From contig CAVVTV010000024.1 in the NCBI GenBank assembly GCA_963751215.1, positions 1,052,178 to 1,116,177 on the forward strand: a stretch of DNA of 64,000 nt, given 5' to 3'. Position 1 is the stretch's first letter. Every line of letters starts with the position of its first letter. The notes beneath the pieces were generated by a model that saw only the letters and a list, made by a program, of their open reading frames with translations, searched no databases and was not told the origin of the DNA. Origin of the DNA: an uncultured Thermoleophilia bacterium (GTDB taxonomy: Bacteria; Actinomycetota; Thermoleophilia; UBA2241). Of this stretch, positions 7,660 to 58,375 are shown piece after piece. Both the position numbers and the translations under genes were made by a program.

Positions 7660-10600
7660 TCAGGCAAGCCGCAGACACACAACCTGAAGGTCGTCCTTAA
7701 GGCTGCCCGCGAACTCGAGGGCGGCGGTCCGCACGCCGTCGGCAAACTCCTGAGCGGAGAGCCCTCTCAGCCGGCAGGCCAGGTTGGCGAGTCGCTTCTC
7801 GCCATACTGCCGACTACCGCGGCGGGCCTCGGTGACGCCGTCAGTGTAGAACAACAGGTAATCATCCAGGGAGAGCCAGAGATGCTCTTCGCGGTAGTTG
7901 CTCGGGAAGCTGCCGAGGGGAGGCCCGAACATGACCCCGAGCTGCCGGCAGGCGGAGGGAGTCACATGGACTGGAGCGGGATGGCCGGCGCTGGCGTAGA
8001 GCATGTGCCCGGTACGGGGATCGAGCACCACCATGAAGGCGGTGACGTGCGGTTCCTCGGAGTCGTAGCGCAACAAGACGTCACTAGTGTTGGCGAGGAC
8101 GAAGGCCGGAGAGGGGTTAACGGCGGCAAACGCGCGCACCGTGCTGCGCACCGTCTCGGTGTGCCCCGCTGCCTTGATGCCCTTGCCGGCCACGTCGCCG
8201 ATCAGCACCGCAATTCTACCGTCTGCCAGCTCGAAGACCTCGCTGAAGTCGCCGCCGATGAGCTCCGGCTCATAGGCCGTCTGCGAAACGATGCCAAGCT
8301 CGATGCCGGGCACGCCCGGCAGCGGGTGCTTGAAGCTCTCCTGCAGGGTCGTGGCGATGCGCTGCTGCTCTTCGTAGAGCCGGGCATTCTCGAGAGCCGA
8401 CGACATGGCACTGGCCAGCTGGCCGGCAAACTCGACGGTGCGCCGCTCGAACCTCGTAGCGGCTGCATGGCGGTTGAAGAAGACGACGCCCAGGACCTCT
8501 TCTCTGACGATCAGTGGTATGCAGAGAACGGAGCGCACGCCGAAGCGGGCTTGCACATCGGGGAAGCAGCGCGGGTCGGCCTCACAGTCGTCGATAGCGA
8601 TCGGGCGCCGCTCCGTGACCGCAGTGACGACGAACGGCACCTCGTCGGTGCTAACGCTCTCGTGGATGACCCCTGGCACCTCCGGATAGCCGTACTCGGC
8701 GACCCAGTCGTCGCCGTGCTTGAGCGCGACCATGACGCTGTCCGCCTCGACGACGGCGACAGCGCGCTCGACAACGGTCTGCATGATGGCCTTCGTATCC
8801 AGGGTCGAGTTGATCAAGCGGTTGATCTCGTTGAGGGCCGTGGCGAGGCGCGCCGCTTCAGTCTCGCGTGCGAGTAGACGCGCGTTCTCAAGGGCCAGAG
8901 AGACGGTGGCCCCGAGCTTGCGCGCGAAGTCGATCTCGGCGTCCTCGAAGTTGCGTGGCGTCTTGCCGTAGAGCAGCAGGCAGCCCATCGCCGAGCCCCT
9001 GGCTACCAGCGGCACCGCAAGCACGGACCGCACGGCATGGATGTGGACGAAACCGACGTCAAGTGACGGATCGGCGGCCATGTCGGCAATCGCAAAGGGT
9101 TCCAGGATTGCCGCGGCGCGCGTGGCGTTGGGCGCCTCCAGATCGCTCAGCCGCAGGCCGACATCGCCAGGCGAGAAGCCTGTCTGGTAGCTTACTACCC
9201 AGCAGGACTCCTCACGCATCTCGATCGCGCCGGTATCGACGGATAGAGCCCGCACGCCTTCCTCAAGGCCCCGCTGCATGATCACGTCGAGGTCGAGCTT
9301 GGAGTGCACCAAGTTGTCGATCGCGTTGAGCGCCTCGGCGAGGTCGGCGCGCAGTCTCAGCCCCTCCTCCGCCCGCAGGCGGGCTGTGACGTCGTTGAAG
9401 ATGGTCGCGAACTTGCCCGGCGAGGGAGTGTAGGCGACGACCTCATAATGCCGATCGAGAGCAATGGAGTAGTGATCGAAGGTCGCCTGGCGGCCAGTCT
9501 GCGCCACGTTGCCGCAGACCTCGATCCAGAGAGGCTCGCGGCTGGGAAGCACCTCACGAGCGGTGTGCCCGATGAGGTCATTGGCGCGCAGGCCGATGAG
9601 CTCCTCGAAAGCCCTGTTGACCTCGAGGAAACGATAGTCGACCGGGCGACCCTCCGAGTCGCTCACGATCTCGTGGACGGCGAAGCCGCTGGTCATCTCC
9701 GTGAAGAGTCTCTGATACGCGCCACGGCTGGCGGCCAAGCCCGCATTGGACGATTCGATCTCAAGCGCCTGCGCCTGCAACTCCTCGCCCTGAGAACGCA
9801 GCTCCTCGCCCTGCGTACGCAGCTCCTCGAGCGCTTGCTGATGCTCGAACTCGGCTTGCTTGCGCTCCGTGACGTCCGAGAACAAGACCGTGACTCCATC
9901 TGGGCTTGGGTAGTCTCGTTCCTCAACCCAGAGACCTAGCGGTTCGTAGTAGGCCTCGAAGGCGGCGGTCCGGCCCTCCTCCATCGCCTTCCGCTTGCTC
10001 AGCTCGAAGATGCTGCCCGCCATGTCTGGGAAGAGCGCCAGGAAGCTGCGACCGAGCAGCTCCTCCTTGGTGCGCTGGAAGTAGGCGGCCGCCCTGTCGT
10101 TCACGAACGTGAGACGCCAGCGGCGATCGAGCGTGAAGAAGGCGTCGCTGATCGTGCCCAGGATAGTGGCCAGACGCATGTGCGAATTGGCCAACTCCCG
10201 TTCAACGTACTTGCGCTCGTTGATCTGACGGTAGTAGGCGCTGACGCCTGCCGCGGTCGGGTAGATGCGCACCTCATACCAGTCTCTGTCGACGACCGAG
10301 CGATGTTCGAAGATGGAGGGCTGGCCGAGCTCCATGGCATCCCGGTAGTGAGCCGCGAGCGGGGTGTCGACCAGCTCCGGGAAGACCTCCCACGGCGTGC
10401 GGCCGAGCAGCTCTGCAAGCGACGTACCGGTCATCTTGAGGGCGGCGCTGTTGGCGTAGACGTAGCGGTACTGCCAGTCGAGTGCCAGGAAGGCCTCGTC
10501 GATCTCCTCGAGCAGGGCCCTCATCCTGATCTCGCGATGGGTGCTCTGCGGCGTGCCGGCAACCACGGCGAGACCGCTCTCAAGTGACCCCACGGGGCAC

Positions 10601-11034
10601 CCTTCGACCGCGCGCTTGACCATCCTCACGGTGAGACCCCCGTCTGGAGGCGTGTGCAGGCGCAGATCGTCCATCATTCGCGACATCATGAAGAGGCCCC
10701 GTCCGCCCATACTCATAGGGTCGGGCGCCGCCTCGGGGTCAAAAGAGGCGACGTCAAAGCCCCGGCCTCTATCCTTCACCTCGACAATCAGAGTCGCGCC
10801 GTTGATCCCGAGCGAGACCCGCATCTCCTCATCGGACCCCGAGTGAGTGATGACGTTGGCGCAGGCCTCGTCAACGCAGAGAAGCACGTCATCGACGAGA
10901 CCGTCCCCGGCGCAGTGCATGCGCAGGTAGTCGCGAATGCGCTCCCGGGCGCGCAGCAGCAACGCCGGGTCGGGGGCCAGGCGAAAGCGCAGGGACGGTG
11001 GTGAGATCTCAGGGAGGTGACTTGGTGCTGACAC
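7660..11034 (-). CDS. multidomain signalling protein: N-terminal RsbW/SpoIIAB-like HATPase (anti-sigma Ser kinase) - PAS x3 with coiled-coil - GAF x2 - C-terminal PP2C (SpoIIE/RsbU-type) phosphatase
   Basis: 1124-aa ORF with GTG start. N-terminus LRMHCAGDGLVDDVLLCVDEACANVITHSG...GRGLFMMSRMMDDL...GGLTVRMVKRA (HATPase_c of anti-sigma kinases). PAS-like segments, EELRTQGEELRSQGEELQAQ coiled coil, two GAF domains. C-terminus GDFSEV...VLIGDVAGKGIKAAG...YASAGHPAP...YTDGVTEAR (PP2C). Confidence 0.85.
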   Translation of the reverse strand: MSAPSHLPEISPPSLRFRLAPDPALLLRARERIRDYLRMHCAGDGLVDDVLLCVDEACANVITHSGSDEEMRVSLGINGATLIVEVKDRGRGFDVASFDPEAAPDPMSMGGRGLFMMSRMMDDLRLHTPPDGGLTVRMVKRAVEGCPVGSLESGLAVVAGTPQSTHREIRMRALLEEIDEAFLALDWQYRYVYANSAALKMTGTSLAELLGRTPWEVFPELVDTPLAAHYRDAMELGQPSIFEHRSVVDRDWYEVRIYPTAAGVSAYYRQINERKYVERELANSHMRLATILGTISDAFFTLDRRWRLTFVNDRAAAYFQRTKEELLGRSFLALFPDMAGSIFELSKRKAMEEGRTAAFEAYYEPLGLWVEERDYPSPDGVTVLFSDVTERKQAEFEHQQALEELRTQGEELRSQGEELQAQALEIESSNAGLAASRGAYQRLFTEMTSGFAVHEIVSDSEGRPVDYRFLEVNRAFEELIGLRANDLIGHTAREVLPSREPLWIEVCGNVAQTGRQATFDHYSIALDRHYEVVAYTPSPGKFATIFNDVTARLRAEEGLRLRADLAEALNAIDNLVHSKLDLDVIMQRGLEEGVRALSVDTGAIEMREESCWVVSYQTGFSPGDVGLRLSDLEAPNATRAAAILEPFAIADMAADPSLDVGFVHIHAVRSVLAVPLVARGSAMGCLLLYGKTPRNFEDAEIDFARKLGATVSLALENARLLARETEAARLATALNEINRLINSTLDTKAIMQTVVERAVAVVEADSVMVALKHGDDWVAEYGYPEVPGVIHESVSTDEVPFVVTAVTERRPIAIDDCEADPRCFPDVQARFGVRSVLCIPLIVREEVLGVVFFNRHAAATRFERRTVEFAGQLASAMSSALENARLYEEQQRIATTLQESFKHPLPGVPGIELGIVSQTAYEPELIGGDFSEVFELADGRIAVLIGDVAGKGIKAAGHTETVRSTVRAFAAVNPSPAFVLANTSDVLLRYDSEEPHVTAFMVVLDPRTGHMLYASAGHPAPVHVTPSACRQLGVMFGPPLGSFPSNYREEHLWLSLDDYLLFYTDGVTEARRGSRQYGEKRLANLACRLRGLSAQEFADGVRTAALEFAGSLKDDLQVVCLRLA

Positions 11035-14143: not shown

Positions 14144-14261
14144 GAGCCTACCTTCGGGGTCGATCACATTCTAGCCCCTCGAGGGTCGGCACGCGGCCGG
14201 CGTCGTTATAGAGGTCTGCCGGCAGCATCTCCTCAACTGATGCCAACGCCTTTGACTCAGC

Positions 14262-14320
14262 CGCCTGGCGGGTACATACATCTTCGCGGTGCCACGAGGT
14301 GGGGCCGAGTGTTCGTAGCG
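14262..14320. promoter_or_regulatory. conserved ~55-nt non-coding motif, copy 1 (ACGAGGTGGGGCCGAGTGTTCGTAGCGCGACGCAGCGCACGCCTGGTACG)
   Basis: About 85% identical to 42243..42300. Lies about 120-180 nt upstream of the CheBR-PAS-GAF start on the minus strand. Coordinates are approximate (+/-2). Confidence 0.5.
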
Positions 14321-14581
14321 CGACGCAGCGCACGCCTGGTACGCAGAAGCAGTCGACCCGGTGCAGCGAGCCCTCGTTGCCAGCTCAGCCCCCCTCGGCG
14401 CGCCTCTTCTTGGCCCCCCATACCCTCTGCTGGACGAGGCCTCGCCTACTGCTGCTCTTACTCGTCGTGCGAGAAGATGGGACAACCTTCACCAGCGACG
14501 CTCCCATGCCACGGAAAGCCACGATTGCCGCCCTCACCTGGTGGGAAGACATCGGCAGTCGCATCACCCGAGGAGGACGTC

Positions 14582-22004: not shown

Positions 22005-22164
22005 ATCCCACCCCCTTCCGTATGGCTATCATAGCTCACCAGAGGCCGTCGTGCCCGTTTCAAGCAATGTCCGCACGGCTCGCTGATCGTTCGCCAGCTC
22101 ATCACGGATTCGCACGCCCCACGGTCGCGTCACGGCGACCCGTTGGTTGCAGAGACCGGCCGCC

Positions 22165-22830
22165 ACCCCCTAGTATCGTTCGCCGCGGTAGCCGGCTTCG
22201 GTGGCGCGCTGGAACCAGCGCTCAGCTTCGTCGAGCTCACCCAACTGCTCCAGTAGCAGGCCGAGGTCGAACATCGCATCTGCTTCGCCTGCCTCGGCGG
22301 CCTGCCGATACCACTCTTTGGCCTGCTCGGGCTGGCCCTGTTCCTTCAGCAGGGCGCCGAGGTTGAACATGGCGTGGGCGTCGCCCGCCTCGGCGGCCAG
22401 GCGATACCACTCTTTGGCCTCGCCGATGTCGCCGCGCAGGTAGAGGAGCGCGCCCAGGTTGAACATCGCGCGCACGTCGCCTGCCTCGGCGGCCAGGCGA
22501 TACCAGTGGTCGGCGCCCTCGATGTCGCCGCGCAGGTAGAGGAGCGCGCCCAGGTTGAACATCGCGCGCACGTCGCCTGCCTCGGCGGCCAGGCGATACC
22601 AGTGGTCGGCGCCCTCGATGTCGCCGCGCAGGTACAGCAGGTGGCCGAGGTCGCACCGCGCCTCGGTATCGCCTGCCTCGGCCGCCTGCCGATACCAGCG
22701 CTCAGCGCCCGTGGTGTCGCCCTGCTCTCTGAGCAGCCGGCCGAGGTCGCGCATCGCCTGGGTATCGCCCGCCTCGGCCGCCTCCCCAAGCCTTTCTGCT
22801 TCGTCGGACATGTGGTGCTGCTCCCCTTGT
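22165..22830. repeat. 0.66-kb direct repeat, copy A (about 95% identical to 27143..27808)
   Basis: Contains whole Sel1 gene A plus its start region. Identity breaks about 20 bp upstream of the ATG and at ctagtatcg just past the stop. Confidence 0.8.
22170..22811 (-). CDS. Sel1-like/TPR repeat protein, copy A (213 aa)
   Basis: ORF 22170..22868 trimmed to ATG 22811 (MSDEAERLGE). Repeated 36-aa units EWYRLAAEAGDxxAMFNLGALL. Internal 108-bp tandem units are nearly identical at DNA level. Confidence 0.8.
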   Translation of the reverse strand: MSDEAERLGEAAEAGDTQAMRDLGRLLREQGDTTGAERWYRQAAEAGDTEARCDLGHLLYLRGDIEGADHWYRLAAEAGDVRAMFNLGALLYLRGDIEGADHWYRLAAEAGDVRAMFNLGALLYLRGDIGEAKEWYRLAAEAGDAHAMFNLGALLKEQGQPEQAKEWYRQAAEAGEADAMFDLGLLLEQLGELDEAERWFQRATEAGYRGERY

Positions 22831-23051
22831 GCTCTTCCGGGCACGCCCAGTTCTTGTACGCCGCACACGAATGACGTGCTCAGACGCGATCACGTCGCGA
22901 TCGGCTATCCATTCCCACCCCGCGACTTCTTCATACTGGCAGCTCGAATTGCGGCACGCCGACCGGTGAGGTGTGCGGCCGAACGAGGAATGCGTCTTGA
23001 CCGAGCGTGTCCTCAGAGCCGGCGGTGTGCCTGGCTCCGTCTTGGACCGGG

Positions 23052-26928: not shown

Positions 26929-27147
26929 CGCGCTAACCGCTTCGGTGGCGTGCTGTAGGGCGGCGGCGGCGGCGAGGGCGCTCTTCGCCGCGCAGCCGGC
27001 GTAGTTGGCGCAGGAGAGCAGGGTGCCGTCGACGAGGCGCACGCTGCCGGCCGCGACGAGCTCGGCGACGGCCAGCTGCACGCGCGTGATCTGCGGTGTC
27101 AGGCGACGCAGGCGGCGGTTGAACTGCGACTGCCCGGGCGGGAGCTT
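26929..27147 (-). pseudogene. orphan C-terminal gene fragment (about 72 aa, no start), unknown origin, possibly mobile-element derived
   Basis: Minus-frame ...SQFNRRLRRLTPQITRVQLAVAELVAAGSVRLVDGTLLSCANYAGCAAKSALAAAAALQHATEAVSAANDPA* with about 93% GC3, so it is a coding frame. It abuts the stop of Sel1 copy B with no upstream start. Confidence 0.4.
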
Positions 27148-27808
27148 CTAGTATCGCTCGCCGCGGTAGCCGGCTTCGGTGGCGCGCTGGAACCAGCGCT
27201 CAGCTTCGTCGAGCTCACCCAACTGCTCCAGTAGCAGGCCGAGGTCGAACATCGCATCTGCTTCGCCTGCCTCGGCGGCCTGCCGATACCACTCTTTGGC
27301 CTGCTCGGGCTGGCCCTGTTCCTTCAGCAGGGCGCCGAGGTTGAACATGGCGTGGGCGTCGCCCGCCTCGGCGGCCAGGCGATACCACTCTTTGGCCTCG
27401 CCGATGTCGCCGCGCAGGTAGAGGAGCGCGCCCAGGTTGAACATCGCGCGCACGTCGCCTGCCTCGGCGGCCAGGCGATACCAGTGGTCGGCGCCTTCGA
27501 TGTCGCCACGCAGGTAGAGGAGCGCGCCCAGGTTGAACATCGCGCGCACGTCGCCTGCCTCGGCGGCCAGGCGATACCAGTGGTCGGCCTCGTCGAGCTC
27601 ACCCTGCTCCTTGAGCAGCTGGCCGAGGTCGCACCGCGCCTCGGTATCGCCTGCCTCGGCCGCCTGCCGATACCAGCGCTCAGCGCCCGTGGTGTCGCCC
27701 TGCTCTCTGAGCAGCCGGCCGAGGTCGCGCATCGCCTGGGTATCGCCCGCCTCGGCCGCCTCCCCAAGCCTTTCTGCTTCGTCGGTCATGTGGTGCTGCT
27801 CCCTTTTT
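27143..27808. repeat. 0.66-kb direct repeat, copy B
   Basis: See copy A. Same orientation, about 5 kb apart. Confidence 0.8.
27148..27789 (-). CDS. Sel1-like/TPR repeat protein, copy B (213 aa)
   Basis: ORF 27148..28149 trimmed to ATG 27789 (MTDEAERLGE). About 93% identical to copy A, differing mainly in one repeat (QLLKEQGELDEADHWY versus HLLYLRGDIEGADHWY). Confidence 0.8.
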   Translation of the reverse strand: MTDEAERLGEAAEAGDTQAMRDLGRLLREQGDTTGAERWYRQAAEAGDTEARCDLGQLLKEQGELDEADHWYRLAAEAGDVRAMFNLGALLYLRGDIEGADHWYRLAAEAGDVRAMFNLGALLYLRGDIGEAKEWYRLAAEAGDAHAMFNLGALLKEQGQPEQAKEWYRQAAEAGEADAMFDLGLLLEQLGELDEAERWFQRATEAGYRGERY

Positions 27809-28252
27809 CGTAGGCACCATTGGTGCTGTCGTGTGCCGGCCGCCGTCATCCTGGTCCGGTGAGTCAATGTACGCTTGAGACTAACGTCGGGCAACCGGTC
27901 CTGGACGACCCTGTGCTCGCGGCCGGACGGAAGCGACGACCTCGAGCAGAGATCAGCCGAGCGCGGGCATGCCGCCCCAACCCACAGGCCCGCGGGCCCA
28001 CTCGCGCGGAGCCCCGGGAACTCGTTGTCACGGTCCACGAGGGCTTGCCACGCTTTCCGGGAAGGCCATGCGTCGGCCTCGAAGCGAGCCTGGCTCGCTG
28101 CGCGCCGGGTCCTCCGGCGGAAGAACGCAGCTCCCGCTATGCCACGCATGCCAGGCTGACCGCGAGCGCTCCTGGGTTGACGGTCTCCTCCGCATCAACC
28201 ACGATGGCGGTCAGGTCTTCCGGACTGACTGCTATGCAACGGAGGTAAGAGG

Positions 28253-30172: not shown

Positions 30173-30531
30173 CGCCGGCCTCACGCACTGAAGGTGAGGC
30201 TCCCGGCGCAACAGCAACGCCATCCGCGCTGGCCTGCCGAACCCGACCGCGTGGGCTACGGCGGCTGCACGCGCGCAGTGCGGACCGCTACTTGAGTTCG
30301 CTGCGGCACTACTCGCGGCAGACATCACGGCAGGTGGCCGACGCCAGGGTGCCGCGCGCTCCGATGAGGACGACCACGACCGTGAGGACGATCGCCGAGA
30401 CCGTAAGGCTGACGGTTGTGAGCCTGAATCTCACTTAGTCGAAGGTCCGAGGACGATCGGACGGATCTTGGCGACCGTATTCCTGCACGCTACTTGTGAC
30501 CTGTCGCCGCGCGGCCGGGAACAATGGCATC

Positions 30532-31005
30532 ATGACTCTCTGGAAGCTCCCTCCACCCGCCAAGGTCTATGAAGCGTTCAGCGCCATCGGCGACGACCGC
30601 GTCCGGCTAGAGGAGCCGGGACGCGCCACGGTGCGGTCCTCAGGCGGCGAGAAGGCCTACACGGTCGAGTGGACGGACGATTTGGCGGCCGTCACGTCGA
30701 ACGACAACGCCTCGTACTGGCAGGGCTACCTTGGCTACCCGATCGTGGCTGTCCTCATCGCGGCGGGCAAGGTGCGGGTGGACGAGACCGCGCCCAGAGT
30801 GCTCGCGGGGATCGACTGGCATGCCCTAAACGAGCGCTTCAAGCGCGACTACGATGCCGCGGTCGGCCATGTGCTCGACGGACTCGCTCAGCGCGGAGAG
30901 GATCCCGAGCGCGTCAGGCGCGAGGTCGACAGCGTGATGGGCCAGCTCGCCGAGCTCAAGCTGGAGCGTGCGGGCCGAGGCAGGCGGCCGCCTTCCCCAA
31001 GCTGA
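30532..31005 (+). CDS. hypothetical protein
   Basis: ORF 30496..31005 trimmed to the second ATG (MTLWKLPPP). No family match. Confidence 0.45.
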   Translation: MTLWKLPPPAKVYEAFSAIGDDRVRLEEPGRATVRSSGGEKAYTVEWTDDLAAVTSNDNASYWQGYLGYPIVAVLIAAGKVRVDETAPRVLAGIDWHALNERFKRDYDAAVGHVLDGLAQRGEDPERVRREVDSVMGQLAELKLERAGRGRRPPSPS

Positions 31006-31065
31006 GGCTCACGCGCCATGGTGACGGTCGCGGGCTGAGTAGTCGCAGGCAGCGCTCCGCGCGGT

Positions 31066-31097
31066 GTATGCTAGAAACGTCAGATCGATGCGGCTTC
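31066..31097 (+). promoter_or_regulatory. conserved motif copy 1: TATGCT-agA-AACGTCAGATCGATGCGGCTTC (-10-like hexamer plus conserved 23-mer)
   Basis: 27/32 identical to 50944..50974. About 70-100 nt upstream of the MFS transporter ATG at 31164. Positions +/-2. Confidence 0.45.
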
Positions 31098-31163
31098 CCC
31101 TTGACCGGCCTTCCACTCCGACGTGTTGGCTAGCGGCTGGGCCGCGCCCACAAGGAGCAAGCC

Positions 31164-32948
31164 ATGACTGATGTCGCCGTTGCGACCGCAGCAGAGCCCG
31201 CAGCGACCGTCGACCCCTACAAGGGCAAGTGGTCGACGCTATCCAATACCACCCTCGGCATGCTGATGGCCTCGATCGACGCCTCCATCGTGCTCATCGC
31301 CCTGCCCGACATCTTCCGCGGCATCCACCTCAACCCGCTCCTGCCGGGCAACACCAGCTACTTCTTGTGGATGATGATGGGCTACATGCTGGTAACAGCG
31401 GTGCTGGTGGTGAGCTTCGGCCGCCTCGGCGATATCTTCGGTCGGGTGCGCATGTACAACATGGGCTTCGCCCTCTTCACCGTCTTCTCGATCATGCTCT
31501 CGGTGACCTGGATGCACGGGCGTGACGCCGTCCTGTTCATGATCGTCATGCGCATCTTCCAGGGCGTCGGCGGGGCCCTCATCATGGCCAATTCGATGGC
31601 CATCCTGACCGACGCCTTCCCCCCCAAGCAGCGTGGCCTGGCCCTCGGGACCAACATGATGGCGGCCATCGCAGGCTCGTTCATCGGCCTTGTGCTGGGC
31701 GGCATCCTGGGGCCCATCGACTGGCGCCTCGTGTTCCTGGTCTCGGTGCCGGTGGGCATCGTCGGCACCATCTGGGGCGTGATCAACCTCAAAGAGAAGG
31801 GCGTACGCACCCCGGCCAGGATCGACTGGCTGGGCAACGCCACCTTCGCTCTCGGCCTGGTGGCGCTGCTCACCGGCATCGTCTACGGCATCGAGCCCTA
31901 CGGTCGCCACACCATGGGCTGGAGCAGCCCCTGGGTCCTGGCGGCCCTGATCGGCGGCGTGCTGATGCTCTGCCTGTTCGTGTGGATCGAGACCAGAGTT
32001 GCCTCGCCGATGTTCCACATCCCGCTGTTTCGCATCCGTTCGTTCGCGGCCGGCAACGTGGCCAGCCTCATGGCCGCCCTCGGGCGCGGCGGGCTCATGT
32101 TCGTGCTCATCATCTGGCTGCAGGGCATCTGGCTGCCCGAGCACGGCTACAGCTTCGCTCGGACCCCGCTCTGGGCCGGCATCTTCATGCTGCCCCTGAC
32201 CGGTGGGTTCCTCCTCGCCGGGCCGCTGTCGGGCTACCTCTCGGACCACTTCGGAGCGCGGCCCTTCGCCACCGGCGGGATGCTGGCGGCGGCCGCGAGC
32301 TTCGCGCTCCTGGAGCTCCTGCCAATCGACTTCTCCTACGTCTGGTTCGGGCTCCTGCTGCTGGCCAACGGCTTGGCCATGGGCCTGTTCGCCTCGCCCA
32401 ACCGGGCCGCCGTCATGAACTCGCTGCCCCCCGACCAGCGCGGCGCCGGCTCGGGCATGGGCGCCACCACCATGAACGCCGCCATGGTGCTCTCCATCGG
32501 CATCTTCTTCACGCTGATCATCGTCGGCCTTGCCGCCTCGCTGCCGGGCGCCCTCTACCAGGGCCTCACCGCCCACGGGGTGCCCGCTGCCGCCGCCCAG
32601 AGGGTGGCCGACCTGCCGCCCACCGCCTCGGTCTTCGCCGCCTTCCTTGGCTACAACCCCGTGCAGAACCTGCTCGGACCGAGCGGCGTGCTCGCCCACA
32701 TGCCCCCTGCTCAGGCCGCCTTCCTGACCGGCCGCTCGTTCTTCCCGAGCCTCATCGCGGGGCCATTCAGCCACGGCCTGCACGAGGCCCTCGACTTCGC
32801 CATCGCCGCTTGCCTGCTGGCGGCCGGCGCTTCCGCCCTGATGGGCAAGCAGTACTTTCACGAGGCCCCGACCGAGACCACGCCCGCCGACACCGGGCCG
32901 GTGTTGCCTCGTCTTGATGCCGGCAATCTCTTTGACGATGGTCTGTAG
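31164..32948 (+). CDS. MFS transporter, DHA2 (EmrB/QacA-like, 14-TMS) family
   Basis: 594 aa. GRLGDIFGRVRMY motif, 14 hydrophobic segments. Confidence 0.85.
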   Translation: MTDVAVATAAEPAATVDPYKGKWSTLSNTTLGMLMASIDASIVLIALPDIFRGIHLNPLLPGNTSYFLWMMMGYMLVTAVLVVSFGRLGDIFGRVRMYNMGFALFTVFSIMLSVTWMHGRDAVLFMIVMRIFQGVGGALIMANSMAILTDAFPPKQRGLALGTNMMAAIAGSFIGLVLGGILGPIDWRLVFLVSVPVGIVGTIWGVINLKEKGVRTPARIDWLGNATFALGLVALLTGIVYGIEPYGRHTMGWSSPWVLAALIGGVLMLCLFVWIETRVASPMFHIPLFRIRSFAAGNVASLMAALGRGGLMFVLIIWLQGIWLPEHGYSFARTPLWAGIFMLPLTGGFLLAGPLSGYLSDHFGARPFATGGMLAAAASFALLELLPIDFSYVWFGLLLLANGLAMGLFASPNRAAVMNSLPPDQRGAGSGMGATTMNAAMVLSIGIFFTLIIVGLAASLPGALYQGLTAHGVPAAAAQRVADLPPTASVFAAFLGYNPVQNLLGPSGVLAHMPPAQAAFLTGRSFFPSLIAGPFSHGLHEALDFAIAACLLAAGASALMGKQYFHEAPTETTPADTGPVLPRLDAGNLFDDGL

Positions 32949-42035: not shown

Positions 42036-42242
42036 GGGCGGCCTCACCTCTCCGGGTGGCGCCGCCGGCACGCCGACACCCTGCTCCTGATGCGCTTGCG
42101 CCCGCCTTGCAGAGCCCGGCGACTCGGAAGATCTTGGGGCGGCGGCATGAACCCTAGCACAGCGCAGTGGTCGGCGATGTCTCCCCAACTGACGCCAACA
42201 TCTTTGACTCGGGCCGCCTGCCGGGTCGACACACGCTCACGG

Positions 42243-42300
42243 CGTCACGAGGTGGAGCCGAGCGTTCGTAGTATGACGCAGCGCCCCCTGGTATGGGACC
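42243..42300. promoter_or_regulatory. conserved ~55-nt non-coding motif, copy 2
   Basis: ACGAGGTGGAGCCGAGCGTTCGTAGTATGACGCAGCGCCCCCTGGTATG. About 210 nt upstream of the STAS gene start (minus strand). Confidence 0.5.
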
Positions 42301-50444: not shown

Positions 50445-50951
50445 ATGGACGCGCGCATCGCCGTGATCTCGGACACGCATGGGCGGCTCGGCCGTCGTGT
50501 GCTCGAGGCCTGCGCCGGCGCCGACCACATCATCCACGCCGGCGACGTGGGCTCGCGCACGGTACTGGACGACCTGGCACGGCTGGCTCCTCTGACCGCG
50601 GTGCGCGGCAACCGCGACAGAGACGCGCTCGGCACCGAGCTGCCGTGCGAGGCCGCCGGCGAGGTGGCGGGCCTCCGCTTCGTGGTCGTGCACAAGCGTC
50701 GCGACCTCAAGGCCGCCCACCCGGATCCGGCGGCCGAAGGGCTGGGGCTCCTCGTGTACGGCCACACCCATCAGCCGGAGCTGCGCTTCGGCGGGCACGT
50801 GCCGGGCCGGCTACCGGTCCTCTGGCTCAACCCCGGCAGCTGCATGGCACCGCTCCCGCACGATCCGCGCCCCAGCATGGCGCTCCTGGTCGTGCGCGAC
50901 GGCGAGCCCGACGCCCACCTCATCTTCCTCCCCTCGCGAGGTATATACTAA
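50445..50951 (+). CDS. YfcE-like metallophosphoesterase (intact copy)
   Basis: ORF 50355..50951 trimmed to ATG (MDARIAVISDTHG). Motifs DTHG, IIHAGDVG, AVRGNRD, GHTHQPE. GCAGGAGGG RBS. Confidence 0.8.
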   Translation: MDARIAVISDTHGRLGRRVLEACAGADHIIHAGDVGSRTVLDDLARLAPLTAVRGNRDRDALGTELPCEAAGEVAGLRFVVVHKRRDLKAAHPDPAAEGLGLLVYGHTHQPELRFGGHVPGRLPVLWLNPGSCMAPLPHDPRPSMALLVVRDGEPDAHLIFLPSRGIY

Positions 50952-50974
50952 AAACGTCAGACCGACGCGGCTTC
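50944..50974 (+). promoter_or_regulatory. conserved motif copy 2: TATACT-aaA-AACGTCAGACCGACGCGGCTTC
   Basis: Overlaps the stop of 50445..50951. About 45 nt upstream of the GTG start of 51020..51529. Confidence 0.45.
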
Positions 50975-51019
50975 ACATGACGGCACGCTGGCTAGAAGGC
51001 CGAGGCGAGGAGCGTCCAC

Positions 51020-51529
51020 GTGAAGGTCCCTCTGCAGTGGGTCTGGGAGAACGACCCCGAAGGACTCCCCGATGATGACCATGCGCGCTGCATCGCCGCC
51101 CCCGGCGAGCGCTTCCTCGCCTGCGACGGGCAACTGTTCAAGCTGATGACGCGCCCCTGCACCTACCTCTCCGGGTCCCACGGCGGGCGCAGCACGACGA
51201 CCTTCGCGACGCTGCAGATGGAGTACCTCGGCCGCAACTGGGCACGTGGCCTTGCGCAGAAGTCCTGGGGCAGTGAGCCCTTCGTCGTCGGGCCGTTCGG
51301 CGGCGAGACCCAGCAGGCGGCCGGCCGCGCCCTGCTTGCCACGCTGAAGGGTGCGCTGACGGCAATGTCGTCAATGCGCCACAAGCCCACGTACCCAGCA
51401 CAGGCCGAGTGTGACGGCCCGGAGCAGCCCCTGCGACCGGCCGGTTGGCCCCCTTGCGGACACGCCGCCCGCGTGCGGCGCCCTGCGCTCCTACCCCTCA
51501 CGGTGGGCCGCGCTGGCGACCTGCGGTAG
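51020..51529 (+). CDS. hypothetical protein
   Basis: GTG start with GAGGAG RBS. No family match. Confidence 0.4.
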   Translation: MKVPLQWVWENDPEGLPDDDHARCIAAPGERFLACDGQLFKLMTRPCTYLSGSHGGRSTTTFATLQMEYLGRNWARGLAQKSWGSEPFVVGPFGGETQQAAGRALLATLKGALTAMSSMRHKPTYPAQAECDGPEQPLRPAGWPPCGHAARVRRPALLPLTVGRAGDLR

Positions 51530-52391: not shown

Positions 52392-53028
52392 CAGGTACCG
52401 CCTGTTCGCGAGTTCTGGCGCCACTGCAGTGTTCCCGCGGACAAACTCGACGTGAGCTGCTCCTCCCGCCGGCATCCCTTGCTGGGCGCTTGGCCACGGC
52501 GGCGTCTCACTCCCCGCCCAGGCCTTTAGTGCAGCAAGGTGCCGAGGCCGCCACACCACGCCGTGGTGGTGCCGATGGCCACGAGGATGACGACAATCAG
52601 GGGAAGCATTGCCGGGCGGCGCACGATGGCGCGCAAGCGCAGCATCAAGCTCCTTTGCTGGAACGACACTCTTATTGTACCCGTGGTCACCCCGCGCCTC
52701 GCGCCGCGGGAGGGAGTCAGCACGGAGGGAGGCGACAGCCGAGGCGCTGAGGACCGTCGCCGATCGTTACCGCGCGGCCGTGTTCTGCGCCATGGCCTCT
52801 TTCAGCCCTGCGAACTCGGCATTGTGCACGTAGAGACGGTCGAAGTCGCGCTCTGCCTCGGCCCGCTTGCCGAGCGCCTGCTAGCAGGGACGGCGCAGGA
52901 AGAGGCAGTACTGCGGGACGAGGTCGAGGTTCTGGCGGCGCAGCGGCGCCGATCTGGCGTTATTGACAGCAAGCATCTTCTGTTAGAGACTACCAGTAGT
53001 TAGTCAATAACGAAAGGAGGTGGCTGCT

Positions 53029-54666
53029 ATGAAGATCATCGGTGCGCGCCGCTGGTGGGCCCTGGCGGCGATCACGCTGGCGGTACTCGCGGTTGGCATG
53101 GACCTGACGGTCCTGAGCATCGCCTTGCCGACACTCGCCGGCGCGCTCAAAGCCACCGAGTCTGACCTGCAGTGGTTCTCCTCGGGCTATGCCCTCGTGC
53201 TCGCCGCGGCCATGCTGCCGGCTGGGCTGCTGGGCGACCGCTACGGGCGTAAGAAGGTGCTGCTAGGCTCGCTTGCTCTGTTCGCCGCGGGCTCGCTTGC
53301 CTGTGCGCTGTCACGCTCGCCCGACCAGTTCCTCGTTAGCCGGATCGTCCTAGGCCTGGCCGGCGCCGGGATCATCGTCATGGCGATCTCGGCACTGACT
53401 GTGATGTTCTCCGAGGCGGAGCGTCCCCGCGCCGTGGGCATCTGGGCGGCAGCCAACTTCCTCGCCTTTCCCATCGGTCCGATCCTCGGGGGCTGGCTGC
53501 TCACCCACTTCTGGTGGGGCTGGGTGTTTCTGCTCAACGTGCCGGTGGCCGCCATCGGCTTTGCCGCAGTCGTTGCTCTGGTACCGGAGTCGCGCGCGCC
53601 CGTGCGCCCCGGGCTGGACTGGCTTGGGGTACTTGCCTCGAGCGGCGGCCTTGCCGCGGTGACCTACGGCCTGATCGAGGCCGGCCAGAACGGTTGGAGC
53701 AGCCGAGGGGCGTTGCTTGCCATCGTCTGCGGAGTCGCCCTGCTGGTCGCCTTCTTTGCCTGGGAGCGCCGGCTCACACGCAAGCCCGAAGGGCAGCCGC
53801 TCGTCGACCTCGGCCTGTTTGCCTCGGCCTCCTTTACCTGGGGCGTGCTGCTGATGACCATCATGACCTTGGCCATGATCGGCATCCTGTTCACGATGCC
53901 CCAATACTTCCAGGCCGTGCTGGGGACTAGCGCACAAGGCTCTGGTCTGCGCCTGCTGACGATCGTCGGAGGGCTATTGATCGGCGCTCTGCCGGCCGAT
54001 CGCCTGGCGCGCCGGCTGGGCGCCAAGATCACCGTCGTCATCGGCTTTCTCGTACTGGCCGCCGGTCTTGGGCTGGGCGCACAGACCAACCTGGCCTCGC
54101 ATGGCAGCTTCGTCGCTGCCTGGATGGCCCTGGCCGGCGTCGGGGTGGGCATCACCATGGCCACCACCGCCTCGGCTGCCCTCTCGGAGCTTTCCGCAGA
54201 CAAGGCGGGCGTGGGCTCGGGGGTCCTGCAGGCGCTCAAGAACGTGGGCGCACCCTTCGGCGCGGCCGTGCTGGGCAGTGTCCTGGCCTCCGCCTACCGC
54301 AGCCACCTGCCCCTGCCCGGTCTGTCGGGCGCCGTCGCCGGCGCTATGCGTGGCAGCGTCTTTGCCGGCTTGACCGTCGCCGAGAAGCTGGGCTCGCCGG
54401 CACTGGTTGTCTCGGTGCGCGGAGCCTTTGTTAAGGGTATGGATGCAGCCTTGCTAGTATCGGTAGGATTCGCTCTAGCGGGCAGCATCCTGGCTCTGGC
54501 CTTCCTGCCCGCCCGCAGTGCAGCGCGCAAGACAGCGGCCAGCGAAGGAGAACACGCCGAGCATGAGCTCATCGTCGCAAAGCAAGCCGACCCGCCTCAG
54601 CCTGCGGGAGCGCAAGAAGCTCAAGACTCATCTGGCGATCCAGCGCCAGGCGCTTCGTCTCTTTAA
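53029..54666 (+). CDS. MFS transporter, DHA2 family (14-TMS)
   Basis: ORF 53020..54666. ATG 53029 with AAGGAGG RBS. LPAGLLGDRYGRKKVL motif. Confidence 0.85.
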   Translation: MKIIGARRWWALAAITLAVLAVGMDLTVLSIALPTLAGALKATESDLQWFSSGYALVLAAAMLPAGLLGDRYGRKKVLLGSLALFAAGSLACALSRSPDQFLVSRIVLGLAGAGIIVMAISALTVMFSEAERPRAVGIWAAANFLAFPIGPILGGWLLTHFWWGWVFLLNVPVAAIGFAAVVALVPESRAPVRPGLDWLGVLASSGGLAAVTYGLIEAGQNGWSSRGALLAIVCGVALLVAFFAWERRLTRKPEGQPLVDLGLFASASFTWGVLLMTIMTLAMIGILFTMPQYFQAVLGTSAQGSGLRLLTIVGGLLIGALPADRLARRLGAKITVVIGFLVLAAGLGLGAQTNLASHGSFVAAWMALAGVGVGITMATTASAALSELSADKAGVGSGVLQALKNVGAPFGAAVLGSVLASAYRSHLPLPGLSGAVAGAMRGSVFAGLTVAEKLGSPALVVSVRGAFVKGMDAALLVSVGFALAGSILALAFLPARSAARKTAASEGEHAEHELIVAKQADPPQPAGAQEAQDSSGDPAPGASSL

Positions 54667-55171
54667 GAAGCAGGGCTATGAGGCGACCACGGTCGAGCAG
54701 ATCGCGGAGGCCGCCGAAGTCTCACAGACCACCTTCTTTCGCTACTTCGGCAGCAAGCAGGACGTTGTGCTCCACGACGCGCTCGATCCGCTTGCGGTGG
54801 CGGCCCTGGAGGCACAACCGGCCGAGCTCTCGCCCGTGGAGGCGCTGCGCCGAGCAGTGCGCGAGGTCTACGCGGGCCTTGACGCCGAGGAGCTCGCCGC
54901 AGAGCGCGAACGTCAGGCGCTGATACGAGCGACACCCGAGCTGTGGACCGGCATGCTCAGCGACGTCACCGGCGCGCTTGGCATGTTCTGCGACGTCATT
55001 GCCCGGCGCACGGGGCGCAAGACCGATGACATCGCCGTGCTCACCCTGGCCGGCGCCGTCTTTGGGGCCGGCATTGCCGTCTGGCTGAGCCATCCCGCGG
55101 ACGAGGTGGACGACTTTCTGGAGCTCTTCGACGCCGCTCTGGCTCAGCTCGAGGCGGGCCTGAGACTGTAG
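54563..55171 (+). CDS. TetR/AcrR family transcriptional regulator
   Basis: ORF 54518..55171 trimmed to ATG. TetR_N HTH LAIQRQALRLFKKQGYEATTVEQIAEAAEVSQTTFFRYFGSKQD. Overlaps the MFS gene 3' end by about 100 nt. Confidence 0.75.
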   Translation: MSSSSQSKPTRLSLRERKKLKTHLAIQRQALRLFKKQGYEATTVEQIAEAAEVSQTTFFRYFGSKQDVVLHDALDPLAVAALEAQPAELSPVEALRRAVREVYAGLDAEELAAERERQALIRATPELWTGMLSDVTGALGMFCDVIARRTGRKTDDIAVLTLAGAVFGAGIAVWLSHPADEVDDFLELFDAALAQLEAGLRL

Positions 55172-56585: not shown

Positions 56586-56806
56586 TCGACTCCAGCGACA
56601 GTCCAGACGGCCATGCGGCCGTTTCACCCTCTCGGCCGACAAGCGCTGCGGTTCCTGCTAGCAGAACGACCCCCGATGTGCAATATTAGTGGGGACCCCC
56701 GGCACGCCGCCGTCTCGTCGAGATGCACCACGCCGCGGCGTCTGGCCGAAGTCAGGAAGCACCTTGCGGCACGCGACCGGCCAGTCCAGCACCACGAAGC
56801 CAGCAG

Positions 56807-58375
56807 ATGGCGGCTGAAGGTCGCCACTCCACCGGCGGCCCGGGGCAGACAGGTCTCGCGCCGCGGATCCTTTTGATCGAGGACAATCCCGGCGATGCGC
56901 GCCTCGTACGGGAGCTCCTCGCCGAGGCCAACCCGGGTTTCGAGTTGCACTGGGTGCAGCAGCTCGCGGCCGGCCTTGCGTACCTCGCCGAGGGCGATCA
57001 GATCGCCGCCGTGCTGCTCGACCTCTCACTACCCGATAGCCAGGGATTGGCGACCTTCGAACGCCTGCACGCCGCAGCCCTCGAGGTGCCCATCATCATG
57101 CTCACCGGCCTAGCCGACGAGGAACTCGCCCTGCAGGCCCTGCGCGGCGGTGCCGCTGACTACCTGACCAAGGACGACATCAGCGGGGCGCTGCTCGTGC
57201 GCGCGGTGCGCTACGCGGTCGAGCGCCGCCAGAGCAACGAGGTGCTGCGGCTCAGCGAGGAGAAGCTGCGTCTCGCTATGGAGGCGAGCGAGTCGGGCAT
57301 CCTCGACCTCGACGTCCCCACCCGCCAGATGACCTCGAGCGCCGACTGCCAGGCGATGCTCGGCCAGCCGTCGGTCGAGGTGAGCGGCCCACTCGAAGAG
57401 ATCTGGGCCGCCTACATCCACCCCGAGGACCGCGCGGCCAGCTTGCAGGCGCTCGAGGAGACGATCGCGGGACGCTCTCCCTACTTCGAGCGCGAGCACC
57501 GCCTGCGCACCACGCGTGGCGGTTGGGCCTGGGTGTACGACAAGGGCAAAGTGGTCGAGCGCAACGCCCAAGGCGCCGCGCTTCGCCTGCTCTCCACCTG
57601 CACGAACATCACGACGCGCAAGAAGGCAGAGGAAGATGCCGTCACCACGGCCACCCTGCTTGCCGAGCAGCGCCGCATCGCCACCACCCTGCAGGAGAGC
57701 TTCAAGCACCCGCTGCCGGACGTGGCCGGCATCGAGCTCGGCGTGGTCTCACAGACGGCCTACGAGCCCGAGCTCATCGGCGGCGACTTCAGCGAGGTCT
57801 TCGAGCTCCCCGACGGGCGGATCGTCGTCCTCATCGGCGACGTGGCCGGCAAGGGAATCAAAGCGGCGGGGCTCACCGAGACGGTGCGCAGCATGGTGCG
57901 CGCCTTCTCCGCCATCGATCCCTCACCGGCCTTCGTCCTTGCGAAGACCAATGAGGTCTTGTTGCGCTACGACCCCGAGGAGCCCCACGTCACGGCCTTC
58001 CTGGCCGTGCTCGACCCGCAGAGCGGACATCTGAGCTACGCGAGCGCCGGCCACCCCGCCCCACTGCACCTGAGTCCCTTCTCCTGTCGCCCGCTCGGCG
58101 TCGGCTTCGGCTCGCCGCTGCACAGCTTCCCGGGCCCATACCAGGAGGAGCACCTCAGGCTCTCGCTAGACGACTACCTGCTGCTCTACACTGACGGCGT
58201 CACCGAGGCACGCCGCGGCGAGGAGGAGTTCGGTGAGGAGCGGCTGATCGAAGTGGCCAGGCGGCTGCGTGGCGCTTCCGCCCAGGAGGTCGCCGAGGGC
58301 GTGCGCGCCGCGGCGCTCGAGTTCGCCGGCAGCCTGAGAGACGACCTGCAAGTTGTGTGCCTGAGGCTCGCCTAG
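56807..58375 (+). CDS. response-regulator receiver (REC) - PAS - PP2C (SpoIIE/RsbU-type) phosphatase
   Basis: ORF 56723..58375 trimmed to first ATG. RILLIEDNPGDARLV...DLSLPDSQG (REC, Asp pocket). PAS. PP2C about 80% identical to the C-terminus of 7660..11034, with the same terminal DDLQVVCLRLA. Confidence 0.8.
   Translation: MAAEGRHSTGGPGQTGLAPRILLIEDNPGDARLVRELLAEANPGFELHWVQQLAAGLAYLAEGDQIAAVLLDLSLPDSQGLATFERLHAAALEVPIIMLTGLADEELALQALRGGAADYLTKDDISGALLVRAVRYAVERRQSNEVLRLSEEKLRLAMEASESGILDLDVPTRQMTSSADCQAMLGQPSVEVSGPLEEIWAAYIHPEDRAASLQALEETIAGRSPYFEREHRLRTTRGGWAWVYDKGKVVERNAQGAALRLLSTCTNITTRKKAEEDAVTTATLLAEQRRIATTLQESFKHPLPDVAGIELGVVSQTAYEPELIGGDFSEVFELPDGRIVVLIGDVAGKGIKAAGLTETVRSMVRAFSAIDPSPAFVLAKTNEVLLRYDPEEPHVTAFLAVLDPQSGHLSYASAGHPAPLHLSPFSCRPLGVGFGSPLHSFPGPYQEEHLRLSLDDYLLLYTDGVTEARRGEEEFGEERLIEVARRLRGASAQEVAEGVRAAALEFAGSLRDDLQVVCLRLA

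Follow-up and report, generated by a model that had tools for sequence, protein, structure and literature searches.

Why do a transporter gene and a conserved hypothetical gene, lying far apart in one stretch of actinobacterial DNA, share nearly the same sequence directly behind a promoter-like hexamer? The window, by which is meant the whole 64,000-nt stretch analysed (G+C content ~67%), contains exactly two matches to the 23-mer AAACGTCAGANCGANGCGGCTTC, which in its variable form reads AAACGTCAGA-N-CGA-N-GCGGCTTC, at 31075-31097 (site 1) and 50952-50974 (site 2), both on the plus strand. The count is still two with three mismatches permitted, the chance expectation is 0.01, and none of 100 shuffled sequences held two or more matches. 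Site 1 follows the hexamer TATGCT (31067-31072), which begins 61 nt past the stop of a 169-aa open reading frame without a family match (30496-31005), and ends 66 nt ahead of the ATG of an MFS transporter gene at 31164; site 2 follows TATACT (50944-50949), a hexamer that runs into the TAA stop (50949-50951) of a phosphoesterase gene (YfcE/Metallophos_2), and 45 nt separate the end of site 2 from the GTG at 51020. Codon-position G+C content agrees with both downstream open reading frames being genes. The preliminary description had reported a near-identical 23-mer behind TATGCT or TATACT in two intergenic regions, each past a stop codon and 45-100 nt before a plus-strand start, and both the repeat and its placement are confirmed. 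By direct reading the likeness extends to about 37 nt, GGTRTATRCTARAAACGTCAGAYCGAYGCGGCTTC, with five differences, all of them transitions. It does not extend further downstream: 3' of the 23-mer the two intergenic sequences show no similarity by local alignment (p = 0.32), so that the common unit comprises the -10 region and about 19-24 nt rather than the whole leader, and the shared leader is shorter than a conserved promoter with its entire 5' leader would imply. Given this pair, with copies counted within the 64-kb window, promoter duplication and capture is the most likely explanation, rather than a shared regulon.

Other repeats are present in the same window. An intergenic element of about 145 nt occurs twice on the plus strand with ~80% identity (14230-14345 and 42185-42300) and contains TTGACT, CACGAGGTGGRGCCGAGYGTTCGTAG, and GACGCAGCGC; its 42-kb copy has no Rfam match at E<=1, and a further shared promoter/leader and a small RNA are both possible readings of it. 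Two TPR/Sel1-repeat genes on the minus strand (22156-22868 and 27134-28149) share a 300-nt stretch that is 98% identical and contain 96-nt (32-aa) tandem repeats, which points to recent duplication or gene conversion between loci about 5 kb apart. Likewise, an inverted repeat of 709 nt with 80% identity (7662-8370 / 57665-58373) joins the 3' part of an 1124-aa open reading frame (7660-11034, minus strand) with the SpoIIE/PP2C C-terminal domain of a response-regulator/PAS protein (56723-58375, plus strand), and its arms are paralogous phosphatase domains.

At both sites a TANNNT/TATAAT-like -10 hexamer lies at a suitable distance before a gene. Promoter activity, like the transcription start sites, translational control, and any co-regulation considered below, is something that we infer from sequence, promoter function in particular from the presence, position, and conservation of a TANNNT box. 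An E. coli-type two-hexamer scan found no -35 hexamer (TTGACA-like, 16-18 nt upstream) at either locus, because there is no -35 box to find, and the alignment of family promoters likewise contains no conserved one. Promoters lacking a -35 element are common in actinobacteria, where SigA-type promoters rely on the -10 TANNNT box. TATACT and TATGCT fit this type, as do the missing -35 conservation, the location directly before a gene, and the G that usually stands immediately 5' of the hexamer in the family described next. What sets the family apart from ordinary SigA promoters is that conservation of the hexamer's inner bases (TATACT) and of the 19 nt transcribed first goes far beyond what a promoter needs.

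That conservation becomes apparent from the gene behind site 2, which encodes a conserved hypothetical protein of 169 aa (51020-51529, plus strand, GTG start) of what is here called the WVW family (WVWxNDPxxLPDxDHARC...). The family comprises 81 full-length homologues, almost all of 166-170 aa, with an invariant N-terminus (WVW-NDP-LPD-DH-RC, or "WVW...NDP...DDDH"), and the genomes that carry the gene are labelled uncultured Thermoleophilia. Protein-guided scans of genome and metagenome collections yielded 31 further loci, and 29 distinct leader sequences, from orthologous loci of Thermoleophilia-like MAGs, were assembled into an alignment (A3) with 85% mean column identity and the consensus TATACT-AAAAAA-GTCAGACCAACGCGGCTTCACACGACGGCACGCTGGCCCCAAGGCCGAGGCGAGGAGCGTCGAG-GTG. 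In the window, the hexamer at 50944-50949 is kept at the same position, with at most one base variant, in 27 of the 28 other distinct family promoters. It is followed by the purine-rich spacer AAAAAC (50950-50955), the most variable stretch on the way from -10 box to start codon, although the 6-nt distance from hexamer to GTCAGACC that this spacer spans is fixed across the family. The conserved 5' UTR of about 64 nt (50956-51019) comprises the 19-nt 5' module (50956-50974) and the conserved block CGACGGCACGCTGGC. It also holds a small hairpin, GGCT-AGAA-GGCC, at 50990-51001 and, at 51007-51012, the Shine-Dalgarno sequence GAGGAG. Counted from the start codon, positions -58 to -29 show 95% conservation, compared with 89%, 89%, and 83% at the first, second, and third codon positions of the adjacent gene, so that constraint on the leader exceeds that on synonymous sites. 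A search for the exact AAACGTCAGANCGANGCGGCTTC in the genome and metagenome contig collections returned no matches, which is uninformative on conservation given that the pattern is one base too strict: orthologous leaders carry AAAAGTCAGACCAACG or GAACGTCAGACCGACG in its place.

The promoter and leader are also independent of what lies upstream of them. In L007 and L008, whose WVW proteins share 86% and 72% amino acid identity with that of the window, the upstream genes differ, yet everything between TATACT and the start codon, the box included, is nearly the same, and promoter and leader are kept in these two and in L004 (a contig whose site-2 locus is identical to the window's) despite unlike upstream genes. 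Conservation across species regardless of flanking genes was found for the site-2 leader only, in 29 distinct versions, and site 2 is best regarded as the probable native version of the element. Here the proposal of a conserved promoter with a 5' leader holds up well, with box, spacing, and leader retained at loci with differing upstream genes. One homologue (L017:3780-4040) has no leader and lies 22 nt behind an open reading frame whose product ends in ...CEAWGCTTILSKYNSSHFCAVHDRIRAERSRS, a Cys/His-rich tail, which suggests an operon in that lineage. An upstream open reading frame or leader peptide within the leader was considered and rejected, as it has no conserved start codon and is interrupted by an in-frame TGA in the window, L007, and L028. 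About 1.5 kb away from the window's WVW gene there is another MFS gene of DHA2 type (53020-54666), with an MftR-type tetR gene behind it (54518-55171); the neighbourhood of WVW, molybdopterin oxidoreductase, MFS, and TetR genes recurs in L004 and L007.

A covariance model built on the 29 leaders (R1) scored 102.8 bits at site 2 and, in eight loci, also picked up a diverged second copy of the leader directly past the WVW gene, at 24-42.5 bits (L008:3521-3602, L013:4511-4595, L016:4505-4593, L018:4521-4605, L023:1040-1124, L025:787-873, L029:795-883, and L030:1359-1447). This second copy has its own TACRCT box with the same 6-nt spacing as the WVW leader, and it precedes a tandem paralogue whose product starts with MLWHW or MFWHW (...NDP...DDDH). 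Given that the paralogue has a box and leader of its own, the promoter-leader unit moves together with the WVW family. The window carries no such tandem paralogue downstream of 51529, as judged by the R1 scan.

What the native leader does is suggested by where its conservation lies rather than by any fold. In single-sequence folds CUUCAC pairs with GUGAAG (the start codon and codon 2), the partner of CGAYG is the spacer that separates start codon and Shine-Dalgarno sequence, and two GGCC stretches pair round a variable loop. Over the 29 leaders this hairpin model is 90.8% paired, against 30-44% when the partners are slid by one to three columns, and the sequences would allow a hairpin to cover both ribosome-binding site and start codon. 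Covariation within the 29 leaders, on the other hand, was no better than in column shuffles (the measures were reached by 78-204 of 500), an alternative hairpin register behaved alike and no better, RNAalifold with the paralogues added gave six invariant pairs and no compensatory changes, and the test of own against swapped duplexes was non-significant (p = 0.077). Minimum-free-energy z-scores of the folds, at only -0.3 to -1.2, indicate no unusual stability. A long-range pairing between 5' UCAGACC and the WVW codons GGUCUGG was discarded, being broken or uncompensated in L014, L018, and L037. Conservation nevertheless starts at the presumed +1 and stops at the start codon, and most indels lie either in the loop of the small hairpin or in the spacer leading from the Shine-Dalgarno sequence to the start codon. 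Together with the lack of an operator-type dyad, the span of conservation and the placement of indels favour a role at the RNA level. Since it is primary sequence and not pairing that is conserved, a sequence-specific partner may be supposed, be it a protein, a small RNA, or a ligand-binding tertiary fold, and the leader would then act as a translational cis-regulatory element read by that partner through its primary sequence. For the full site-2 leader, the suggestion of a small cis-acting RNA element is therefore a plausible one.

The nearest comparison is with translational leaders that mask the start codon or Shine-Dalgarno sequence, such as riboswitch platforms, ribosomal-protein autoregulatory leaders, and RNA thermometers. 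The WVW leader resembles them in its ~64-nt conserved UTR ending at the start codon, its indels in loop and spacer, its possible occluding hairpin, and its lack of a terminator-like U-run; it differs from them in lacking covariation support, unusual stability, and a counterpart in Rfam, where none of the 4227 families of release 15 matched at gathering score over the whole window or at E<=10 around either site. The leader might represent a new class of translational riboregulator, ligand-sensing or protein-binding via primary sequence or tertiary contacts, with the 5' 19-nt module being the part recognised and the pump placed under the same signal, a combination that we regard as rather unlikely.

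Site 1 presents a different picture, being a partial copy. Its -10-like hexamer TATGCT fits TANNNT and has the 6-nt spacing to GTCAGA seen in all family promoters, the intervening purine-rich spacer AGAAAC (31073-31078) separating the box from a putative transcription start that, judging from the usual distance between -10 box and +1, would lie at or next to G31079. The 19-nt 5' module that follows, GTCAGATCGATGCGGCTTC (31079-31097, plus strand), would form the 5' end of the MFS transcript. R1 ranks site 1 second in the window at 15.2 bits (E about 0.05), against 102.8 bits for site 2, and only its first ~19-24 nt align. The resemblance also reaches upstream, where the region 5' of the box (31044-31066, plus strand), including AGGCAGCGCT at 31047-31056, resembles that of some WVW promoters: in a fixed register, the 30 nt 5' of the hexamer match the promoters of L009, L010, L025, and L028 at 19 of 30 positions (null mean 13.5; p about 0.004). 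Given that this match is in register, the copied segment would span about -30 to +19.

Across the ~283 kb compared, the 19-mer GTCAGAYCRAYGCGGCTTC with up to three mismatches was found in family leaders, at site 1, and in one viral coding region only, and other matches to the 5' module were weak, with four mismatches. The viral match, to TCAGACCRACGCGGCTTC, is attributed to chance, as it lies inside a coding region of lower G+C content and is accompanied by no other leader features. Seventeen of the 19 leader positions are kept at site 1, which could reflect either selection or recent origin. The two exceptions, T31085 and T31089, stand for C residues that are invariant in all 29 leaders of the family (WVW-A), and this pair of C-to-T changes appears to fit relaxed constraint better than a retained family-specific function. 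Moreover, no module is present upstream of the MFS orthologues in L001-L003 and L040-L042 (78-90% identity), so far as these loci indicate making site 1 specific to the lineage of the window. The reading of site 1 as a conserved promoter with a 5' leader consequently survives in part: the promoter-like segment is there, but as a lineage-specific partial copy that is absent before the orthologous pump genes and mutated at two invariant positions.

The sequence between this copy and the pump accounts for the rest of the intergenic region. The pump itself (31164-32948, plus strand; GC3 = 0.92) is a DHA2 (EmrB/QacA-type) MFS transporter (Pfam MFS_1, 7.9e-38; TIGR00711, 4e-49), and its homologues of 75-90% identity come from MAGs labelled Acidimicrobiales; no identical protein was on record. 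Taken with the G+C content and the Thermoleophilia label of the WVW genomes, this places the window in an uncultured lineage of the Actinomycetota. Aligning the MFS upstream regions revealed homology to tetR: positions 31105-31167 (plus strand) translate as the final 20 codons, now non-coding, of a tetR gene of MftR type, PAFHSDVLASGWAAPTRSKP followed by a stop, whose TGA overlaps the MFS ATG and within which the MFS Shine-Dalgarno sequence AAGGAG (31152-31157) is embedded. The remnant is identical at 11 of 17 positions (E = 2e-6) to the C-terminus, ...LAFHLDVLGAGLAEPERSMP, of the TetR_C_14 protein in L042, where the MftR-type tetR gene (Pfam TetR_C_14, 2.7e-13; L042:1-396) is intact, precedes the MFS gene, and overlaps its start (GTGA). 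L040 and L001 align to 31105-31167 as well and lack an intact tetR gene directly before it, which may mean that the repressor gene disappeared on more than one occasion. The homologies of module and remnant thus make site 1 a probable junction of three parts: a promoter module of the WVW type, the 3' remnant of a tetR gene, which still provides the ribosome-binding site of the pump, and the pump gene.

Could the two copies instead be bound by one protein? If a trans-acting DNA-binding regulator used +1 to +24 as its operator, pump and hypothetical gene would belong to a single regulon, and several features are as expected: the common block lies just 3' of the -10 box, a frequent position for repressors, what is conserved is primary sequence rather than base pairing, and site 1 retains 17 of its 19 positions. 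Yet the family conservation covers the whole 64-nt transcribed leader from the presumed +1, unlike a 20-bp operator, and orthologous pump genes do without the site, which in the window is mutated at two invariant positions. Nor does the block contain a convincing dyad or direct repeat. The TetR/MarR-type dyad that had been proposed within the 23-mer is absent on inspection of the 23-mer and alignment A3, with the best pseudo-palindrome, GTnAnnCC-N5-GGnnTnAC, pairing 5-6 of 10 positions and using columns that vary among orthologues. Boxes of the CsoR, CRP, LexA, ClgR, and GlnR types do not appear to fit by inspection. On balance a shared operator is unlikely. Equally, the 5' 19-mer might be a self-contained RNA module, whether a protein or small RNA site or an anti-Shine-Dalgarno/anti-start strand, that places both genes under the same post-transcriptional control. 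Pairing with the initiation region can be drawn at both sites, ACGUCAGAUCG with UGACUGAUGU and GGCUU with AAGCC at site 1 and the CUUCAC-GUGAAG pairing at site 2, but it stands at chance level (p = 0.05-0.3 with shuffled modules as the reference; 0.10 and 0.20 with random genomic targets), the partner segments are unlike between the sites, and in L026, L033, and L035 codon 2 changes while GGCUUC shows no compensating change. We consider one cis-acting RNA common to both sites improbable.

Two further readings are disfavoured. A pattern scan matched an intrinsic terminator on the minus strand at 50968-50954, with the hairpin GCGUC-GGUCU-GACGU followed by a U run; no minus-strand gene ends nearby, however, the plus-strand WVW gene lies between, most orthologues lose the stem through replacement of GACCGACG by GACCAACG, and site 1, which gave no match in the pattern scan, has only UUUC after a weaker stem, all of which makes termination a most improbable function. 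The presence of two direct copies 19,877 nt apart might also recall attL/attR sites or the ends of a mobile element bounding a 19.9-kb insert. Against this, the interval contains housekeeping-type genes, for FtsH, PPK2, an AsnC regulator, and a BBE oxidase and no integrase or transposase, the copies, of which the window holds only two, differ at 5 of 37 positions, and site 2 is kept at orthologous loci with unrelated flanks. There is scarcely any likelihood that the pair marks such an insertion.

Taken as a whole, the account that we consider probable is that the two sites are homologous promoter-leader copies, with site 2 native and site 1 captured before the pump in place of a tetR gene. At site 2, a housekeeping-type actinobacterial promoter with the box TATACT would start transcription at or next to the G of GTCAGACC and produce a 5' UTR of some 64 nt. 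This leader has barely changed within the genes for a family of 169-aa proteins from Thermoleophilia-like Actinomycetota, and control of translation initiation is its most likely role. In the lineage of the window only, a copy of a WVW-type promoter, from about -30 to +19, would have become fused to the final 20 codons of a tetR gene of MftR type, which ancestrally would have preceded the DHA2 MFS pump gene and been translationally coupled to it. The pump would thereby have lost its cognate repressor gene, and the captured promoter most likely drives it now. The 23-mer would then be untranscribed spacer together with the first 19 nt of both mRNAs, common by descent. This sequence of events builds on direct observations: the repeat, its homology, a conserved site-2 leader, orthologues without site 1, and a remnant of tetR.

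De-repression of a pump through loss of a TetR repressor or through promoter capture is a general concept, and promoter capture upstream of an efflux gene is reportedly discussed in one paper; a search of the literature returned nothing specific to this element. The locus resembles known pairs of tetR and efflux pump genes in that L042 has tetR before the pump, of which the window keeps 20 codons with a foreign promoter module upstream. Unlike selected de-repression mutants, it would be a rearrangement that arose and became fixed in nature, in an uncultured actinobacterium from soil. This has implications for the inference of regulons from motifs, given that a promoter and leader motif common to two genes can mirror duplication history and not common control. 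For the organism, it points to natural regulatory rewiring in which a DHA2 pump, minus its TetR repressor gene and plus a foreign promoter, may be expressed free of its original repressor. The WVW leader is the more interesting object: unusually well conserved and not described before, this promoter with its 5' UTR belongs to a family of proteins without known fold or function from a barely studied actinobacterial class (Thermoleophilia-like MAGs), and it is a concrete candidate for a new cis-regulatory element.
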